DNA of 64,000 bases from assembly GCA_965203275.1 (NCBI GenBank), contig OZ241865.1, positions 1,344,001 through 1,408,000 on the forward strand, given 5' to 3'. Positions 47,678 to 64,000 of this stretch are shown one piece after another. A program made the position numbers and the translations under genes. The stretch's first letter is position 1. Each line of letters starts with the position of its first letter. This DNA comes from Bdellovibrionales bacterium. Lineage in GTDB: Bacteria > Bdellovibrionota > Bdellovibrionia > Bdellovibrionales > JAUICD01. The notes under the pieces are model-generated. The model worked only from the letters and a program-made list of their open reading frames with translations, ran no database searches and was not told the origin of the DNA.

Positions 47678-47751
47678 AAAAAATCAATTTTAACTTTAAG
47701 TGTTTTTACACAACTTGTATAAATAAGCTCCTAATTTATCAGCTTGTTTTG

Positions 47752-48125
47752 TTTCACTAAAAGTGGTCTAGCCTCTGGCTACTTTCTGGCGATGACCACG
47801 ATGGCTTTTGCCATCGATAAAATGGTCATCGCCTAGAAAGCCTGACCACTTTTAGTAGAAAGGATCTCTTCGTTTTTTAACACCATGTTAAGGAAAAAGT
47901 TCTTTTTTTTTGTTTTTTTATTTTTTTTAGATTCTGCGTAACCATCAAACAAAAAATAATTAGGGAGAGGATGGGGCAGTGGGAGACTGAAGATCTTCCG
48001 CAAATTGAGCTTGCTCCTTAAAAGCAAGCTCAATTGAGGACTTCGGAAGGCTCACACTGCCCTATCCTCAAATAAAAATAAAATGGAAAAAAGCAGAATC
48101 GAAGGGCGGTGGGTGGGGTTAGGGA
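47752..48125 (+). repeat. Full composite element A + tail + B
   Basis: Same order as 40154-40530; ends GGGCGGTGGGTGGGGTTAGGGA. Confidence 0.92.
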
Positions 48126-54358: not shown

Positions 54359-57300
54359 ATGCCTAAAAAACAAGACATATCATCGGTTTTAATTGTTGGA
54401 GCTGGACCAATTGTGATTGGACAGGCTTGTGAGTTTGATTACTCTGGTACACAAGCCTGCAAAGCCCTTAAAGAAGAAGGCATCCGAGTCATTTTAATTA
54501 ATTCTAATCCAGCAACTATTATGACAGACCCTCAAATGGCTGATGCCACTTATATTGAACCTATTACACTTGAATCTATTGAAAAAATTATTATTAAAGA
54601 AAAACCTGACGCTCTATTAAGTACTGTGGGAGGACAAACTGCTCTTAACACAGGACTAGAGCTATGGAAAAAGGGAGTGTTAGATAAATACAATGTACAA
54701 ATGATTGGTGCTAAACCAGAGGTGATTGAAAAAGCAGAAGATCGCCAGCTTTTCAACAAAGCTATGGAAAAAATCGGACTGGAAGTTCCTCGAAGTGCCA
54801 TTGTTTCATCTCTACAAGAAGGACTTGAACAGCTAGACAAAATTGGCTTACCTGCAATCCTCCGTCCATCTTTTACTTTAGGCGGAATAGGTGGAGGGAT
54901 TGCTCACAACTTAGAAGAGTTTAAGCAAATCCTTAACTATGGGTTGGGTCTTTCACCCAACCATCAGGTTTTGATCAATGAGTCTGTCTTAGGCTGGAAA
55001 GAATATGAAATGGAAGTTGTCCATGACCACAATAACACGGCCATTATTATTTGTTCTATAGAAAATTTAGACCCTATGGGTGTACACACTGGAGATAGTA
55101 TCACTGTAGCTCCTGCTCTTACTCTGACAGACAAAGAATACCAAGAAATGCGAGAAGCTTCTATTGCTGTATTAAGAGAAATTGGCGTTGAAACAGGGGG
55201 ATCTAATGTGCAGTTTGCTATTAATCCTCAAAATGGCAAAATGTTTGTGATAGAAATGAACCCTCGAGTTTCCCGATCTTCTGCATTGGCCTCTAAGGTG
55301 ACAGGCTTTCCCATTGCTAAAGTAGCTGCTAAGCTGGCCATTGGCTATACATTAGATGAAATTCAAAACGATGTGACACAAGCAACACCCATTTGTTTTG
55401 AACCCTCTATCGATTATATTGTAACCAAAATCCCTCGTTTTAACTTTGAAAAATTCAATGGCACGAAGCCTATTTTATCTAGCTCTATGCAATCTGTAGG
55501 TGAGGTGATGTCTATTGGTCGTAGCTTTGCTGAAAGCCTACAAAAAGGACTTTGTTCTTTAGAAATAGGACTTACAGGCCTTAACACCCCTATCATTGAA
55601 GGAATAGACCAAACACAAACTCAAACCCAAACCCAAACCCAAACTCAAACCAAGCAAGAAAAACAAGCTATTTTAAAAAAAACTTTAAGCAGTTTATATT
55701 CTGATCGCATCTTACAAGTGGCAGAAGCTTTAAGATGGGACTTGTCTGTTGATGAAATCTATAAAATCACAGGTATTGATCCCTGGTTTTTAAAAGAGAT
55801 CCAAAAAATTATCATAAAAGAGAAAAAAATCCAAACTCAAGGCCTACCTACAAATAAAATAAAGCTTTTACGTTTAAAAAAAATGGGCTTTTCTGATGCC
55901 CGTTTAGCAGAACTTTCTGGGAAAACTCAAGAAGAGATTTGTCAGTTAAGACACCAATTAAATATTAGACCTGTTTTTAAAAGAGTGGACACCTGTGCAG
56001 GTGAGTTTGAGTGTAAAACAGCTTATTTATATTCTAGTTATGAAGGTGATGGTCTTTCAACAACGGAGTGTGAGGCTTTCCCCTCGACCCAAAAAAAGGT
56101 CATTATACTAGGCAGTGGTCCTAACCGTATTGGTCAAGGCATTGAATTTGACTATAGTTGTGTGCATGCAGCTATGAGCCTCTCTGCTACTCATCTAGAA
56201 ACCATTATGATCAATTGTAATCCTGAAACAGTTTCTACAGATTATGACACTTCTGATAAATTATACTTTGAAGGACTTTGTGCAGAAAATGTTTTAGAGA
56301 TCATTCATTGTGAACAACAAAAAGGACAACTCTTAGGAGTGATTGTGCAGTTGGGAGGGCAAACCCCTCTTAAATTATCACAAGCTTTACAAAAAGCCAA
56401 TGTTCCTATTTTAGGTACCTCACCTGACAAGATTGACTTAGCCGAAAATAGAGAACGTATGCAAAAACTACTGACTCATTTAAAGATCAAACAACCTCAA
56501 AGCACTATAGCTTATAATATGAAAGAGATGGCTTCTACAATTGGCAATCTAGGCTATCCTGTTGTCATACGCCCTTCTAATGTGTTAGGTGGGCGGGCTA
56601 TGGCTATTTTGAAAAGCCCTCAATGTTTAGAAAGATATTTAAAAGAAAATCAATATATGATTTTAGATGGGCCTATTTTAATTGATAGGTTTTTAGAAAA
56701 TGCAATAGAGGTTGACGTAGACGCAATCAGTGATGGCAAGGATGTTTATATTGCAGGTATGATGCAACATATTGAACATGCAGGCATTCATTCAGGAGAT
56801 TCAGCTTGTGTCCTCCCTCCTTATAGCTTATCAAAATCCCTCCAAAATGAAATAACCCAAAGTACTGTCCATTTAGCAAAAGCCTTGTCCATAAAAGGTT
56901 TTATTAATGTTCAGTATGCTATATATAAGGAAAAACTTTATGTGATTGAGGTCAATCCAAGAGTTTCACGGACTGTGCCTTTTGTTGCTAAAGCTACAGG
57001 TGTGCCGATTGTAGCAATAGCCTCTCAAATTATAGTAGCATTTCAAAAGCTTGCTGATTTTAATTTGCCATCTAGTGTGCCTGAGCATTTCTCTGTCAAA
57101 GAAGTGGTTTTACCTTTTTCTCGATTGTCTGGTGCAGATACACTCTTAGGGCCAGAAATGAAATCCACAGGAGAAGCTATGGGTTGGGATCAGAACTTAC
57201 CTATAGCCTTTGCTAAAACTCAAGTGGCAGCTTTTAATCCCATCCAGACACAAGGGACAGCTTTAGTTGTCTATCCAAAAGAACTCAAAGAACAAGCTTT

Positions 57301-57742
57301 ATTTATGCTTAAGTCATTTATTGGTTTAGGTTTTAAAGTAGGTATTTTAAGGGAGCTTATAGGAGATCTATCAGAAGAAGAATCAAAAAGCATTTTTTCT
57401 TTAGAAGATGCTTTATTTACATTTATAAGACAGGAGAAAAAAACAAAGGATCATCAGAGCAGAGGAGAGCAACAAGATTTTGCTTCTTTAAGTTTGGTAG
57501 ATTTGTTAGATTTTATACAGTCAAAAAGGATAGATTTTGTAGTGAATGTGGATCGCAGTGAACGTTTAAAAGTTTTTAGAAAAGCTATTTTATTAAGTCA
57601 TCTAAGTTGCTTTTCTACCCATGAATCTGCTTTATCAGCTCTTGACTTCATAAAGTACAGTCATAGCAAAAATATATCTCCTAATGCTTGGAATATTGCT
57701 CCTATTCAATCTTTACTCTCCCACCAGTCATCTTGTTTGTGA
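54359..57742 (+). CDS. carB: Carbamoyl-phosphate synthase large subunit
   Basis: [64 protein letters not shown]; (QT)n insertion near 55610-55652. Confidence 0.97.
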
Positions 57743-58617: not shown

Positions 58618-59595
58618 TCAAGAGTGACTTTTAAGTGCAAGTTCTTCAAAAAGCAATGCTCTATCTACATAACCTTCTATCCGATAAGTCATCTCTAAAG
58701 TAAATTTAAAAAGTTCAAAAAGCTTTTGATTTGGTACACCTGAGACTTTTACAAAATGAGGCTTTAAATCTTTATTCATTAAATCTTCATATCCAAGCCT
58801 TAAAAGCAATATATCTCTTAAAAACTGCCCTAGATAAGTGACCACCCAAAGAGCTTCAAGACGATCCAATGATTGTGTTTGTTGTTTGATTTTTAAAAAA
58901 GCATCAGAAATATAAGACTGAAATAAGTTTTCAAAAATATCTATAGCCTCCTGTCTTAAATGGCTGTTGTTTAAAAATTGATGGAGCAAATCCGCTCGCC
59001 CTTGACAAGATTTTAACATCCAATCAGGTAAGCTATCTTTTTGCATTATTTTTTGGAGGTTCTCAGGAGATAAAGGAGAGAAGACAAGACTCTGAAAACG
59101 ACTATTTAAAGTAGGCAAAATATGACCTCTACTATTTGTAATAAAAATAAAATATGTGTTTGCTTGAGAGGCTTTGTTGTGAGGAGGTTCTTCAAGTGTT
59201 TTAAGAAGGATATTGGAGGCTTGTAGATTGAGACATTCTGCATCCTTTACAATGACAACCTTAGCTTTTCCTAAAGCTCGAAATTGTAAAAAATCAATAA
59301 TGCTTTTGGCTTGCTCTACCCCAATGATATTTTTTTCAGGTGCTATATAACAAAGACTTTCACTTTGCTGAGAAGCTATCCTTAAACAAGGACCACACTG
59401 ACCACAAGCTTGCAAAAAAGATATAGGTTTTTCACAAAGCATACACTGAGTTAAGGCAAGTGCCATACCAGATTTACCTATCCCAGAGGGACCTAGAAAA
59501 AGCAAATTATAAGGCAAACAATCTTGCTCAAGCAATTTTGCAAGTTTTGTTTTCATTGCCTGATGGCCTTGAATATTTTGAATAAGACAGGTCAT
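58618..59595 (-). CDS. holB: DNA polymerase III subunit delta prime
   Basis: LF.GPSGIGK, CGQCGPC, ASN.LLKTLEEPP, ILPT..SR; downstream of tmk. Confidence 0.9.
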   Translation of the reverse strand: MTCLIQNIQGHQAMKTKLAKLLEQDCLPYNLLFLGPSGIGKSGMALALTQCMLCEKPISFLQACGQCGPCLRIASQQSESLCYIAPEKNIIGVEQAKSIIDFLQFRALGKAKVVIVKDAECLNLQASNILLKTLEEPPHNKASQANTYFIFITNSRGHILPTLNSRFQSLVFSPLSPENLQKIMQKDSLPDWMLKSCQGRADLLHQFLNNSHLRQEAIDIFENLFQSYISDAFLKIKQQTQSLDRLEALWVVTYLGQFLRDILLLRLGYEDLMNKDLKPHFVKVSGVPNQKLFELFKFTLEMTYRIEGYVDRALLFEELALKSHS

Positions 59596-59613
59596 AACAA
59601 TACCTTTGGTTGG

Positions 59614-59820
59614 TTCACTAAAAGTGGTCTGACCTCTGGTCACTTTCTGGCAATGACCACGATGGCTTTCGCCATCGATAAAATGGTCATTGCCTAGAAA
59701 GCCTGACCACTTTTAGTAGGGAGGATATCCTCATTTCTTAACACGATGTTAAGGAAAAAGATTTCCTTCTGATGCCGGTTGCCAAATCCCGGATCCCGGA
59801 TAAACACCATATTAAGGAAA
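59614..59820 (+). repeat. Module A + tail, heptamers and a second tail fragment
   Basis: Full A 59614-59757; GATGCCGG/ATCCCGG; CCATATTAAGGAAA. Confidence 0.9.
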
Positions 59821-59876
59821 AAGTTCCTTTATTGCAAGCCACTTGCTCCTTAAAAACATTTTAGAAGCATATCTTG

Positions 59877-60022
59877 TTTCCTTAACATGGTGTAAGAAGC
59901 AAGAAGATTCGCCCTACTCAAAATGCATAGATTTTTGAGGCAATGACTATTTTGTCAACGGCGTAAGCCGTTGCGGTCATTGCCCAAAAACATGCCAGAG
60001 GCATGATGCATTTTGAGTGAAA
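59877..60022 (-). repeat. Module A + tail, reverse orientation
   Basis: Reverse: TTTCACTCAAAATGCAT-CATGCCTCTGGCATG-TTTTTGGGCAATGACC-GCAACGGCTTACGCCGTTG...CCATGTTAAGGAAA. Confidence 0.9.
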
Positions 60023-60024
60023 TG

Positions 60025-60255
60025 TTAAGGAAAAAGAGTTTCATTGAGATTTCTTAGAGAGCCAAGACTAATATAGTAAAATTTCCTACGATCTTTTGCT
60101 GTAGGTTTAGCAGATCCTTCAGCTAAGTTAAGTACAATACTTGAGACAGCCCTTCGAAATTGACTTCTATGAGGCTCTTTCAGATGTAATTTTTTAGAAT
60201 TACGATAAAATTGAGTAGCTAATTGATAAGTTTTGAATTTTTGTTTTTGTTTCAC
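60025..60255 (-). pseudogene. Four-helix-bundle protein (TIGR02436 / 23S rRNA IVP-like, Avd-related fold), truncated by repeats
   Basis: F.TYQLA..FY...Q..RA.SSI.LNLAEG..K.T.KD...F..I.LGSLR; start codon and last residues come from the flanking repeats; last helix missing. Confidence 0.8.
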
Positions 60256-60537
60256 TCAAAATAAATCATGCCTCTGGCATGTTTTCTGGCAGTTAGCCCA
60301 ACGGCTTATCGCCGTTGATCAAAGGCTAACTGCCTAGAAAATCCATTTATTTTGAGTAGGGAGGATCCTTTTTTTTTCTTAATACCATGTTAAGGAAAAA
60401 GTTCTTTTTAAACCCGCCAGGGCTTGGGAGGAAATTTTTTAGATGCAAAAATTCATTACAATCAATACTCTGGAACCTGATCCCGGATCCCTGATCCCGG
60501 ATCCCGGATCCCAGATCCCGGTTCCCGGATCCCGGAT
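60250..60537 (+). repeat. Module A + tail + ~80-nt extension + heptamer array (direct repeat 1 around tmk)
   Basis: Extension AAACCCGCCAGGGCTTGGGAGG...CTCTGGAACCTGATCCC shared with the 61275 copy. Confidence 0.9.
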
Positions 60538-60581
60538 AAACACCTCTAATACCAACATCTTACATCTTAACGTATAGATAT

Positions 60582-61232
60582 CTAAGTAGCTTCAATGAAT
60601 TTTCTTGCAATGATCTCTTTGATCACAGCTTGCTTGAGCTGAGACACATCTTGTATGGAATTCAATACAAGCCACTTATTTGGTTCTTCATTAATTTGAT
60701 CTAAATAAGCTTGTCTAACATTTTGATGAAACTCTATATTTTCAAGCTCAAAGCGATCGAGTGCAATACCATCCTTTTGGCTACGAATATGGCAACGTCT
60801 TTGGGCTTCCTCAACAGGAAGATCCAAAAATACAATGAGATCAGGAGATAGTCCATTTGTTGCAAAAAAATTGAGCCACTGCACATCTTTAATATTTAAC
60901 TGCCGTCCACCCGCTTGAAAGGCCACAGAGCTATAAGTGAAGCGATCACACAACACCCAGCCTTTTTTATTTAAAAAAGGTTTAATTTTATGTTCAACAT
61001 GTTGCGATCGGATGGCCTCGTAAAGTAGGAGTTCTGCCTTAGGGGTCGGGATATCAGAGTCTTTACTTTTATGACGAGTTAAAATACTTCTCAGTTCATA
61101 TCCTAAAGGAGTTCCTCCTGGCTCTTTTGTTATTAGATATTCAATATTTTTTGAAGATAACCAAAAGGCAAGCTCTTTGATCAAAGTGCTTTTGCCAGAT
61201 CCATCCAATCCTTCAAAAACTAAAAATGCCAT
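60582..61232 (-). CDS. tmk: Thymidylate kinase
   Basis: FEGLDGSGKST, EPGGT, LCDRF..SS.A.Q, PDL..FLD. Confidence 0.96.
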   Translation of the reverse strand: MAFLVFEGLDGSGKSTLIKELAFWLSSKNIEYLITKEPGGTPLGYELRSILTRHKSKDSDIPTPKAELLLYEAIRSQHVEHKIKPFLNKKGWVLCDRFTYSSVAFQAGGRQLNIKDVQWLNFFATNGLSPDLIVFLDLPVEEAQRRCHIRSQKDGIALDRFELENIEFHQNVRQAYLDQINEEPNKWLVLNSIQDVSQLKQAVIKEIIARKFIEAT

Positions 61233-61274
61233 AATTAAAAGTTTTTACCTCAATAAAGAATGGAAGTCAATTTG

Positions 61275-61614
61275 TCTCACTCAAAATAAATCATGCCTCT
61301 GGCATGTTTTCTGGCAGTTAGCCCGACGACTACCGCCGTCGTAAAAGGCTGGCTACCTCAAAAGTCCGTTTACTTTTAGTAGGGGAGGATCCTTTTTTTT
61401 TCTTAATACCATGTTAAGGAAAAAGTTCTTTTTAAACCCGCCAGGGCTTGGGAGGAAATTTTTTAGATGCAAAAATTCATTACAATCAATACTCTGGAAC
61501 CTGATCCCAGATCCCGGATCCCGGGATCCCGGTTCCCGGATCCCAGGATCCCGGATCCCGGTTCCCGGATCCCAGGATCCCGGATCCCGGATCCCGGATC
61601 CCGGGATCCCGGAT
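61275..61614 (+). repeat. Chimeric module A + tail + extension + long heptamer array (direct repeat 2 around tmk)
   Basis: Left arms like the 60250 copy, right arms like the 36696 copy; GATCCCG array 61503-61614. Confidence 0.9.
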
Positions 61615-61619
61615 GAATA

Positions 61620-61711
61620 CCATATTAAGAAACAAAAGGATCTTCCCTTACTTGAAATGAACGGCATGATGCATTTTGAGTGAAAATGACGGCTAGTTCA
61701 ATTTTAGGGAA
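61620..61711 (-). repeat. Collapsed reverse A copy with a 49-bp block identical to 52691-52739
   Basis: TTCCCTAAAATTGAACTAGCCGTCATTTTCACTCAAAATGCATCATGCC on the minus strand at 61663-61711. Confidence 0.85.
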
Positions 61712-61822
61712 CTGGTGATTTGCAAAAAAGAGAGTGGATGCTGTTGCTTTGGCTTGGGAATAACTTGGAATTTAAAAAGATGGAATTAGTTGCATGAAGT
61801 TAAGCTTATTAAAATACAAGTA

Positions 61823-64000
61823 TTAGCATGAAGTTAAGTAGTCTAGTCTACAGGTTATACGTGTTCCTCCATTAAGTCCTTTACAGTCCCAAGAACAATT
61901 AAAATATGGGCTTTCACCTCCTTCTGGTAAACACAACTGAGTACCCTGATCTAGTCCACCACCTCCCCCGCAAAGATAACAATTATTCTGATCGGTGGAA
62001 TGACAGCTTCCGTTGACGGGGTCGCCTCGGACCCAGCATCCATTTTGTTGTTTACATGTATCATTACCAGAGACACTGGTACAGCTGGATTCATCGTTGT
62101 ATTGTCCAGTGCCAGTGCAAGTTGGCGTGCTTTCTTTTGTTTTTGAACATGAAACTGTGTTTCCACCATGTACACAAGACCATTTATAATGAGTTGTTGT
62201 GTCAGGTACTTGACGGAGTGTGCCTCTACTACAACTATTTCGTGTATTATTGTTACAAACTGGAGTTTGTGAATTAGAATTTGGATTAGAATTTGAATCA
62301 GCTTCCTTTGTTTTTGAACATGGAACTGTGTTTCCACCAAGTACACAATGCCACTTATACTTAGTAGCTGTGTCAGCTAAGCTATTATCGTTTGCTGTAC
62401 CTCTACGACAACTATTTCGTGTATTATTGTTACAAACTGGAGTTTGGGAATTAGAATTGTCAGAATCATCAGAATCTTCATCAGATTCTTCATCATCAGA
62501 ATCAGAGTCATCGTCAGAATCTGAATCATCGTCGGAATCGGAGTCTTCATCGGAATCTTCAGAATCATCAGAGTCATCATCAGAATCTGAACTAGGTACG
62601 GAAGTTCTATAACAGCAATGGTTCATCGTACCTTCTTTGATTTCCCAGATATCTCCTACTCCTAGGCTAGTACTAGGAGGATCAACGTGCATCCAACCGC
62701 CACGTCCAGTTCCATGTTTGCTTAACTCATTACAATCTATAGAAGAAGCAATATGTGAATCATCTGCCTCATTTGTATTGCTTTCTGCGTCAGGTTCTGC
62801 TCCATAGCTTCCATAACCTATTAGATGTGCAGCATATCCACAAGATGGATAACACGTTCCATTCACATCTCTAACATGACATGTGAATGGTTCATTAGTA
62901 GCACACCCTGCTGATTCAGCACAATAAGACCCTGTACATCCTCTGCCACAGGCTCCATGGGGATCAGGTGTATTATCAGGAGTCGGATTAGGGAGTGGAG
63001 TGCCACCACAGGCAGGTCGTAGGCTACATTTTTCTTGTAAGTCATTCACTTCTAAACGAGGATTATTTTGAGTACAACCGTTGCCTGTATGCCGTAGACA
63101 GGTTCCATTCTTGAATTCCACAGAACAAGACCCTGGTCCGACTGCTTTACATTCACCATCTATGTCCTGTTTGCCAACAACTTCCAAGTCACATGACCTA
63201 CTTGATCCTTGACATTTCCCCTGGTTTTCACCCTCATCACCATCAGGTTCTTCATCTGATTTATGTGGACCGCCATTACCATCAAGAAGACACTTCACTG
63301 GGTTTTCATTAGGTGGAATACCAGTTTTTCCACACTTATCTTCATCGTCCTGTGCAGCAAGGTTATATTTCCACCGACACTTTACTCTAACACTGTCACA
63401 TGTTTTGGTTGATTTTCTATTATTTTTATTTAAGTAACAAAAACCTTTCTTTAGATCACCCTTATTCTTATCATAACCTCCTCTTCCTATATCATTATTT
63501 TTGCATTTACCAGGTTCTGTAAACTCACACGAGGTATTTCTACGCTTACCATGACAAGGTCCACTACCAGTATTTGTTTCTGTCAGTCCTTCTGCTGTTC
63601 CCTTGCAGGGAAGTGTATATGTGCAAGTATTTAAACCTAGTGGTGGACAGCCAGATGCAGTTTGATCAGTATTAGATTGTGTACCTCCTTTAGGATTGCT
63701 ACATTCTGTTTTTCCTCCTGGATCAGGATCGCCACATCGTGCATAATCTACTCCATTACAATAAGGTCTAGTAGCATCACAGCAAACAAAACCACTCTCA
63801 CAAGGCACATATTGACAACTACCTCCTCTTCCTCTACCACTTCCAGGAGGCGACACATACACGCCCCATTTTGCTACCTTAACGGAAGTGCCTCCACAAA
63901 TATGGTAATACTTAACTCCTACATTGTTAGGATTACAACCATCATGGTCTGTAAGAAGATCTTGTGTTGTCAGTTCACAATTAATGGGAGAACCATTGCC
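61823..64000 (-). CDS. Giant Cys-rich protein, paralog of 48423-52617 (5' part outside window)
   Basis: Frame open to window end; shares DHDGCNP..GVKY.HICG, KWGVYV, PKGGTQS..D.T.SGC.PLGL..C.YTLPC, C.PSCG.AA with the paralog; acidic DSDDD linker and two internal NSQTPVCNNNTRNSC repeats. Confidence 0.85.
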   Translation of the reverse strand, partial: GNGSPINCELTTQDLLTDHDGCNPNNVGVKYYHICGGTSVKVAKWGVYVSPPGSGRGRGGSCQYVPCESGFVCCDATRPYCNGVDYARCGDPDPGGKTECSNPKGGTQSNTDQTASGCPPLGLNTCTYTLPCKGTAEGLTETNTGSGPCHGKRRNTSCEFTEPGKCKNNDIGRGGYDKNKGDLKKGFCYLNKNNRKSTKTCDSVRVKCRWKYNLAAQDDEDKCGKTGIPPNENPVKCLLDGNGGPHKSDEEPDGDEGENQGKCQGSSRSCDLEVVGKQDIDGECKAVGPGSCSVEFKNGTCLRHTGNGCTQNNPRLEVNDLQEKCSLRPACGGTPLPNPTPDNTPDPHGACGRGCTGSYCAESAGCATNEPFTCHVRDVNGTCYPSCGYAAHLIGYGSYGAEPDAESNTNEADDSHIASSIDCNELSKHGTGRGGWMHVDPPSTSLGVGDIWEIKEGTMNHCCYRTSVPSSDSDDDSDDSEDSDEDSDSDDDSDSDDDSDSDDEESDEDSDDSDNSNSQTPVCNNNTRNSCRRGTANDNSLADTATKYKWHCVLGGNTVPCSKTKEADSNSNPNSNSQTPVCNNNTRNSCSRGTLRQVPDTTTHYKWSCVHGGNTVSCSKTKESTPTCTGTGQYNDESSCTSVSGNDTCKQQNGCWVRGDPVNGSCHSTDQNNCYLCGGGGGLDQGTQLCLPEGGESPYFNCSWDCKGLNGGTRITCRLDYLTSC

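Follow-up and report, generated by a model that had tools for sequence, protein, structure and literature searches.

The insert between tmk and holB

The window analysed here is a stretch of 64,000 nucleotides (nt) from the genome of a Bdellovibrionales bacterium (contig OZ241865.1), in which an insert separates the host genes tmk and holB and carries a short open reading frame (ORF) of the four-helix-bundle family TIGR02436/PF05635. The genome measures 2.57 Mb with a G+C content of 35% and is labelled G000. Among the other genomes compared, G001 is a congener of G000, and G003 and G004 belong to one genus. The two host genes are:

60582..61232, minus strand: tmk (dTMP kinase), upstream host gene; TIGR00041, E-value 8.9e-48; single copy
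58618..59595, minus strand: holB (DNA polymerase III delta'), downstream host gene; PF13177, E-value 7e-35; single copy; start by alignment to G001

Alignment to G001 (MTCLIQNIQGHQ versus MKYLIDSIQGHQ) places the start of holB at the ATG at 59595 and not at the GTG at 59643 given by the ORF finder. Therefore, the first copy of the hairpin repeat called A lies upstream of holB and not inside it. The spacer between the two genes is 986 nt here versus 5 nt in G001. An earlier note on this DNA had described tmk-holB as a commonly tight pair, and the two genes indeed abut or overlap in all five relatives searched (G001, G002, G003, G004 and G007; one shares the genus of G000, three its family and one its order). 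The insertion is particular to the G000 lineage.

The same note had described this interval of about 1 kb as almost entirely repeat. A whole-genome BLAST of 59400-61900 agrees, with all 20-nt bins within 59600-60540 being multi-copy. The gene body gives 14 matches, the leader in front of it about 23, the A hairpin with its adjoining tail hairpin about 580-850 and the heptamer arrays about 250-420. An Rfam scan of 59000-62000 returned nothing at the gathering score and 19 sub-threshold matches, mostly to microRNA hairpin models. Short-read contigs (X1, X3, X6, X8) end within the repeats and none spans or skips the insert; single-copy contigs extend to both of its borders in X1 and X3 and, in X6, to the border next to tmk. 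From tmk to holB, the insert consists of the following parts:

60476..60537, minus strand: 5' array of about nine GGGATCY-type heptamers, read from the sequence (381 genome matches versus 0 in the reversed control)
60410..60475, minus strand: leader, cut in the loop of the hairpin that sequesters the Shine-Dalgarno (SD) sequence, ending ...GGCGGGTTT (same sequence as nine intact leaders)
60244..60409, minus strand: tail+A hairpin unit no. 1, in place of the SD and ATG of the cassette (fold -58.5 kcal/mol, z -8.4)
60052..60243, minus strand: body of the four-helix-bundle gene, codons 5-68 of 101, helices 1-3 (hidden Markov model (HMM) matches)
60022..60051, minus strand: left end of tail unit no. 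2 (AATCTCAATGAAACTCTTTTTCCTTAACAT), which gives the stop codon (junction after GGCTCTCTAAGA, as in copies c11 and c12)
59876..60021, plus strand: A+tail hairpin unit no. 3, facing the other way and lying inside the loop of tail no. 2 (folding energy -55 to -59 kcal/mol)
59813..59875, minus strand: B-type fragment (CTTGCTCCTTAAAA on the plus strand) plus a tail half (about 80-300 genome matches)
59769..59799, minus strand: 3' array (GGGATCC GGGATTT GGCAACC GGCATCAG), with the array-then-tail order of intact copies
59608..59768, minus strand: tail+A hairpin unit no. 4, of the kind that usually adjoins the cassette downstream (fold -71.5 kcal/mol, z -11.5)

Unit no. 4 stops 12 nt short of the holB ATG, and its array-tail-A order is that of the intact loci. 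Unit no. 3 forms an inverted repeat with unit no. 1: the arms 59964-60022 and 60250-60308 (59 nt) are 86% complementary, so that A copies face opposite ways on both sides of the ORF, as had been noticed before. The B-loop motif CTTGCTCCTTAAAA was likewise found again at 59842; the window holds four such motifs versus 0.07 expected.

The ORF as a truncated family member

The ORF at 60025..60255 (minus strand, 76 aa) matches TIGR02436 with an E-value of 6.9e-13 and 48.8 bits versus a cut-off of 24, its residues 8-71 aligning with profile positions 4-69 of 109, and PF05635 with an E-value of 1.8e-12 and 47.8 bits versus a cut-off of 33.8. Intact paralogs score up to 59.5 bits. The HMM search suggested in the earlier note thus places the ORF above both curated cut-offs and, judged by its sequence, it is a true member of the family without the C-terminal third. 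The complete bundle is not retained, as residues 81-100 of the intact protein, which form helix 4, are absent.

The family motif RxxxSxxxNxxE (PMC3936711) is kept in the remnant as R34, S38, N42 and E45, which are invariant or nearly so in the paralog alignment; the G that opens the published motif is replaced here by Q. The AlphaFold2 model of the intact paralog P0001 has four helices and a mean confidence score (pLDDT) of 92.4. In fold, it comes closest to the S23p-family structures 2GSC and 2RLD, which are also the closest sequence matches, and not to Avd, the accessory protein of diversity-generating retroelements (DGRs), whose chain 8UB7_C ranks 31st with a template modelling (TM) score of 0.64. 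The intact protein is basic, with an isoelectric point of 10.0 and 19 K/R versus 8 D/E residues. XCC0516 of Xanthomonas campestris, a member of the same family, forms a homopentameric ring. A tblastn search of phage records with P0001 gave no match.

The window copy has lost codons 69-101 and the trailer behind the gene. What is left has no SD, an improbable GTG start inside the end of a hairpin and three helices only; the 76-codon ORF is evidently a pseudogene, truncated at both ends. This and four other copies were disrupted by the tail+A unit, two junctions being shared among them. The 3' junction recurs, identically or with a small indel, in copies c11-c14, and in c11 and c14 the gene resumes beyond the insert. 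The junction of unit no. 1 (GGGTTT followed by AAAAAG) is common to copy c14 and to a relic at 61383-61524. The 189 nt retained in the window copy are 99.5% identical to the truncated copy c12 and 98.4% identical to the intact copy c1, without any amino-acid change, so the break is recent or the copies exchange sequence.

Intact copies in the genome

Fourteen TIGR02436 matches in the genome exceed the cut-off, nine of them intact and five truncated. The nine intact genes all encode 101 aa and share 93-100% amino-acid identity. A protein search adds 18 C-terminal gene fragments, 10 of which begin at residues 65-68, i.e. at the 3' junction of the truncated copies. One fragment (residues 84-101) lies elsewhere in the window, at 47699-47752 on the minus strand (G000 1391699-1391752).

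With the 14 loci placed in register, the intact layout is an array, then a leader measuring about 95 nt, the gene itself, a trailer of 16 nt and a second array in the same orientation; G000 2111650-2112200 is one example of an intact copy with its arrays. The upstream array consists of units of 7-8 nt, first GGGATCY and then GGCANNCN-type units ending in GGCATCAG. Downstream, the cassette is usually followed by the tail hairpin (CCTTAACAT-NGT-GTTAAGG) and then by the three-armed A hairpin.

The intact copies differ mostly at synonymous sites, with a nonsynonymous divergence (dN) of 0.018, a synonymous divergence (dS) of 0.306 and a dN/dS of 0.059 over 36 pairs, and with 12, 4 and 37 variable columns at codon positions 1, 2 and 3, respectively. 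Therefore, the protein is under strong purifying selection. The leader, present in about 23-28 copies in the genome, is conserved as well: its last ~68 nt have three variable positions among the nine copies, which is less variation than at synonymous sites. Its hairpin fold (-29 kcal/mol, z -5.0) hides the SD, and the left arm repeats the SD and first codons in inverted form. Since intact divergent gene pairs with a palindromic leader occur in G035, and by coordinates in G025, G026 and G031, the local leader is probably the vestige of a divergent twin gene.

Association of the gene with tandem arrays

Chains of at least two array units stand on both sides of eight of the nine intact copies, against 0.065% of 20,000 random sites; in the ninth, the units are degenerate. 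In a set of 41 related genomes, the GGGATCY heptamer has 381 matches in G000, five in G004 and none in the other 39 genomes or in the controls, and the five in G004 form one array directly upstream of a gene copy. The octamer pattern GGCANNCN(x2.5) occurs only in G000 (44), G001 (67), G004 (62) and G026 (18). Array loci lie at most 150 nt from a gene match in 10 of 18 cases in G004 and in four of five in G026 (hand count), and arrays beside the gene are also visible in the printed flanks of relatives. Gene matches number 32 in G000, 35 in G001, 24 each in G004 and G021, and 12 in G025. None was found in G002 or in G003, although the latter shares its genus with G004.

A search of one genome per species, with a narrow alignment as query, returned 80 loci from 30 records, all Bdellovibrionota. 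Of the gene-adjacent flanks, 32 of 146 scored at least 20 of 32 for periodicity at 7 or 8 nt, versus one of 140 flanks situated 500 nt away. Counted by genome, this is 14/30 near versus 1/30 far. A threshold of 24 of 32 was too strict for degenerate arrays, and the near-versus-far comparison was used instead.

Outside the phylum, 15 plasmid loci from cyanobacteria, Azospirillum and Gemmatirosa were compared, 13 of which were picked from 34 records for genus spread and not at random, the other two being both hits of a further search. A periodicity of 17 of 21 is reached by 13/30 near and 0/29 far flanks, and arrays were recognised by eye, a subjective count, in 14 loci. The upstream and downstream flanks are complementary over at least 15 nt in seven of the 15. 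Of the annotated loci, 11/13 are wedged co-directionally between genes, once between cmr2 and cmr3 and twice between cas6 and cas4. The earlier note had proposed looking for the repeats beside intact paralogs of this and related genomes, and had put the gene forward as a candidate original cargo of the heptamer system. Neither outcome that it named as refuting was obtained: the ORF matches the HMMs, and such paralogs do have flanking arrays. The cargo idea gains support, as the gene stands between arrays in G000, G001, G004, G026, 30 Bdellovibrionota genomes and other phyla.

Two loci may be described individually. In L146, a plasmid of Pseudanabaena galeata, a coding sequence at 698-1057 between cas6 and cas4 has about 14 direct AAAAGCT units upstream and about 10 AAAAGCC units downstream; these arrays are direct and not inverted, as in the genome of the window. 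In L025 (G016), a single four-helix-bundle gene lies inside a perfect 52-nt inverted repeat (1417-1468 and 1799-1850) with units of 8-9 nt. This appears to be the cleanest stem outside rRNA of the kind known from intervening sequences (IVSs) of 23S rRNA among the loci examined.

Hairpin repeats and array contexts

The genome contains 310 arrays, versus none in a reversed-genome control. A tail follows 190 of them, a gene trailer precedes 33 and a leader follows 18. The commonest context (86/310) is tail-half, array, tail, which is the expected product of recombination between the two direct arrays of a cassette. Among the 41 genomes, A units occur only in G000, G001 and G004. These three genomes, all of one family-level group, have the four-helix-bundle genes, the octamer arrays and the A units, and G002 and G003 lack all of them.

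The inverted A unit of the window carries a promoter-like sequence facing holB (TTGACA-16-AAAAAT, 10 of 12; 59931-59958, minus strand). The small arm of each A unit resembles a terminator, with seven such sites versus 1.7 expected. Between tmk and holB, transcription could therefore both end and begin anew at the hairpins.

Pairing of the arrays

The arrays are direct repeats with a palindromic GGATCC core. The two that bracket most of the insert are predicted to pair at -41.2 kcal/mol versus -26.6 +/- 4.8 kcal/mol for shuffled sequences, none of 200 shuffles being as good; these energies ignore competing local folds. In six of the nine intact copies, the flanking arrays pair better than all 100 shuffles. 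Array-sized segments were used because long spurious duplexes swamped the energies of whole 220-nt flanks, for which every one of the 59 real pairs, like both sets of 59 controls, came out below -25 kcal/mol. The RNase III gene (rnc) is present in the genome. Based on these models, the earlier suggestion that the insert may fold out of the tmk-holB mRNA is energetically plausible.

Candidate mobilising enzymes

No match to RVT_1 was found anywhere in the genome, nor any to the Y1/RAYT transposase (PF01797), for which six candidates were scored and none passed. The transposases present are IS256-like (9) and DDE_Tnp_1 (7). A YhgA-like family (PF04754, Transposase_31) clusters 65 ORFs, at G000 1135838-1137040 and about 15-64 other places. 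It was rejected as the mobiliser, since its HMM counts (16 in G000, 19 in G001, 16 in G003, one in G004 and none in G002) do not track the repeats. Truncated copies and gene fragments have multiplied too.

Other features of the window

tmk is bracketed by two direct composites of A, tail, truncated leader and array start, at 60246-60500 and 61271-61524, with a spacing of 1024 nt. Segments 60359-60500 and 61383-61524 are 99% identical over 142 nt, and 60246-60306 and 61271-61331 are 95% identical. The heptamer arrays have about nine units in one composite and about 16 in the other, so that arrays change in length more quickly than the sequence around them. Recombination between the composites would delete tmk. 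The second composite is part of a further relic:

61271..61690, minus strand: second cassette relic upstream of tmk, with array (about 16 units), leader and tail+A, without a gene body (repeat comparison)

Two further observations concern other genes of the window. carB (54359-57742, plus strand) has a (TQ)7-like run within its protein, and an ORF at 61823-64000 (minus strand), large and rich in Cys, with a long acidic repeat of the SDDDSD type, is open at the window end.

Interpretation

Taken together, the ORF is quite probably a broken copy of a selfish IVS-type cassette, encoding a 101-aa basic protein of the S23p/23S_rRNA_IVP/TIGR02436 family, that split tmk-holB. Its family membership, copy number and architecture, the cross-phylum association with arrays, the selection on intact paralogs and the lineage-specific insertion are established. 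One cassette would have landed in the 5-nt gap between tmk and holB, in the orientation of the host genes and in this lineage only. Later, tail+A copies would have entered two recurrent junctions, namely the loop of the leader hairpin and codon 68, and these insertions plus deletion would have removed the SD, the ATG and helix 4. In the transcript, the arrays might pair into an IVS-like stem that is cut by RNase III, the GGATCC core of the heptamer allowing arrays in direct orientation to do so. Such a cut would free the cassette RNA and limit the damage to the host operon. By analogy with its relative Avd, the four-helix-bundle protein may bind nucleic acid.

Several observations weigh against this explanation. 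About 260 of the 310 arrays are not beside any cassette end, the arrays of this genome are direct and not inverted, and in three of the nine intact copies their pairing does not exceed that of shuffles. Each of the 14 copies lies between genes; five agree in orientation with both neighbours, three oppose both and six are mixed, so read-through from host genes cannot explain the expression of all copies; a consensus scan flagged no sigma-70-like site in the leader. Comparing the filled site of G000 with the empty site of G001 revealed no recognisable target-site duplication or sharp end, and no mobilising enzyme for the cassette was identified. Finally, copies c10 and c14 share a 5' junction, yet the body of c14 is closest to the intact copy c4. 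Such mosaics of junctions and bodies indicate that recombination among copies, and not transposition alone, shapes the family; with the multiplied truncated copies, they make general recombination among repeats at least part of the spread.

A different role for the protein was also considered, in which it is the trans-acting partner of the whole repeat system, binding arrays or hairpins as RNA or single-stranded DNA and being required for these to spread or be maintained. In that case, the ~800 tail+A units and 310 arrays would be derivatives of the cassette that lack the gene, comparable to the MITEs (miniature transposable elements with inverted repeats) of an autonomous element. The commonest array context fits this idea, and the protein is basic and under purifying selection in all nine intact copies. 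Its relative Avd belongs to a nucleic-acid-handling complex (PMC10053308). The genome has neither RVT_1 nor Y1/RAYT, and the YhgA-like family does not follow the repeats. The joint presence or absence of genes, octamer arrays and A hairpins in five genomes, which are not independent samples, also speaks for it and is the sole point for a partnership with hairpin A. On the opposing side, G021 and G025 have 24 and 12 gene matches yet no GGCANNCN arrays, gene-dead copies and the 18 fragments still multiplied, so that the protein is not needed in cis, and the tail+A unit is the very element that broke the window copy and four others. The IS256-like (9) and DDE_Tnp_1 (7) transposases could act instead, and a four-helix bundle is not known to have a catalytic role. 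Overall, this role as trans-acting partner is rather improbable. Domestication is less probable still: the paralogs would be useful to the host as small RNA-binding regulators or defence accessories, the arrays would be regulatory or terminator elements, and the tmk-holB copy a lost paralog. A dN/dS of 0.06, the nearly invariant SD-sequestering leader and the recurrence of family members in cas loci, both in the portion of PMC3936711 available and among the plasmid loci examined, would agree with it. However, the genes are present or absent between congeners (24 matches in G004, none in G003), one was inserted into a conserved essential operon, decay is frequent (five truncated copies and 18 fragments versus nine intact), and the same packaging is found inside 23S rRNA in the accessible accounts; for these reasons a selfish passenger fits better. 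That the ORF is the Avd accessory gene of a decayed DGR is highly improbable. The fold is related to that of Avd (8UB7_C, TM 0.64, rank 31) and PF05635 is the Pfam family nearest Avd (PMC10053308), but none of the 14 copies stands beside a reverse transcriptase, no template/variable repeat pair was seen, and 2GSC and 2RLD are closer in sequence and fold. With neither RVT_1 nor PF01797 in the genome, the DGR and RAYT readings were rejected.

Viewed as a broken selfish cassette, the locus shows that such elements can split tmk-holB, an essential and normally abutting pair, without killing the cell. The function of the S23p/IVS protein has been an open question since the ORFs were first found in 23S rRNA intervening sequences, and the family in this genome is informative, offering nine intact selected paralogs, dozens of decayed copies and arrays that are now a module of a hyperabundant hairpin repeat. 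More tentatively, and with the balance of probability against it, S23p-type proteins might be the missing binding partners of bacterial 7-8-nt tandem arrays, and array-armed cassettes the autonomous parents of these arrays. If true, the cassette gave rise to gene-less array, tail and A-hairpin derivatives that now make up several percent of the chromosome, and this organism, in which nine intact selected paralogs stand next to hundreds of arrays, would lend itself naturally to studying the role of the IVS protein.

Comparison with known systems

The closest known counterpart is the 23S rRNA IVS. According to the available part of PMC4990558, the IVS of Coxiella burnetii has two to three tandem GACAGAT heptamers before its S23p ORF and a 28-bp terminal stem, and is excised by RNase III; ORF-bearing IVSs are cited there from Leptospira, Brucella and Xanthomonas as well. 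The two systems share the protein family, tandem heptamers before the ORF and, around it, sequences that may pair, and in both the element is a passenger in a host transcription unit, regarded as selfish in that source. In contrast, the cassette described here lies outside rRNA: none of the 14 copies, the arrays or the A units is inside the single 23S gene (G000 972841-975857). It is present in 14 copies and 18 fragments, its arrays are direct with a palindromic core and not plain inverted repeats, and it is fused to a hairpin repeat family. Its SD is strong and purifying selection acts on it, in contrast to the Coxiella ORF, which is decaying as portrayed in the consulted text.

Family genes (23S_rRNA_IVP/four helix bundle) have also been described within cas loci (PMC3936711, in the portion available). 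Like the cassette here, these are small genes of the same family standing co-directionally between operon genes, and those of Picosynechococcus (cmr2-cmr3), Anabaena sp. 90 and Pseudanabaena (both cas6-cas4) all have flanking arrays of 7-8 nt. The accessible text of that paper treats the gene as possibly Cas-related and leaves flanking arrays unmentioned; the host operon here is tmk-holB. Avd is likewise a basic four-helix bundle of related fold, but it is a weaker match than the S23p structures, and neither a reverse transcriptase nor a template/variable repeat pair is present here. REP/REPIN-RAYT systems and MITEs resemble the repeats of this genome in being very abundant intergenic hairpin units that are nested in one another and, here too, disrupt genes. 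Unlike them, the units here come without a Y1/RAYT gene, include variable arrays of 7-8 nt and have modules in common with a protein-coding cassette.

Over-represented intergenic tandem heptamers, such as the GGGAATC repeats of PMC4692102, have been reported from cyanobacteria and Xanthomonas, their function and binding partner being unidentified in the available parts of PMC4692102 and bioRxiv 10.1101/2022.06.06.494920; the latter calls the partner "yet to be identified". The heptamers that flank the four-helix-bundle genes at the cyanobacterial loci examined here are of the same kind. The accessible text of these papers does not draw the link to PF05635, and the terms 'S23' and 'four-helix' occur 0 times in that of PMC4692102. 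Coxiella IVS aside, a general link between PF05635 genes and flanking 7-8-nt arrays was not found in the literature searched, subscription papers being outside the search. What is new relative to the literature searched is that the cassette lies outside rRNA, that it has been amplified and that it is fused to a family of hairpin repeats.

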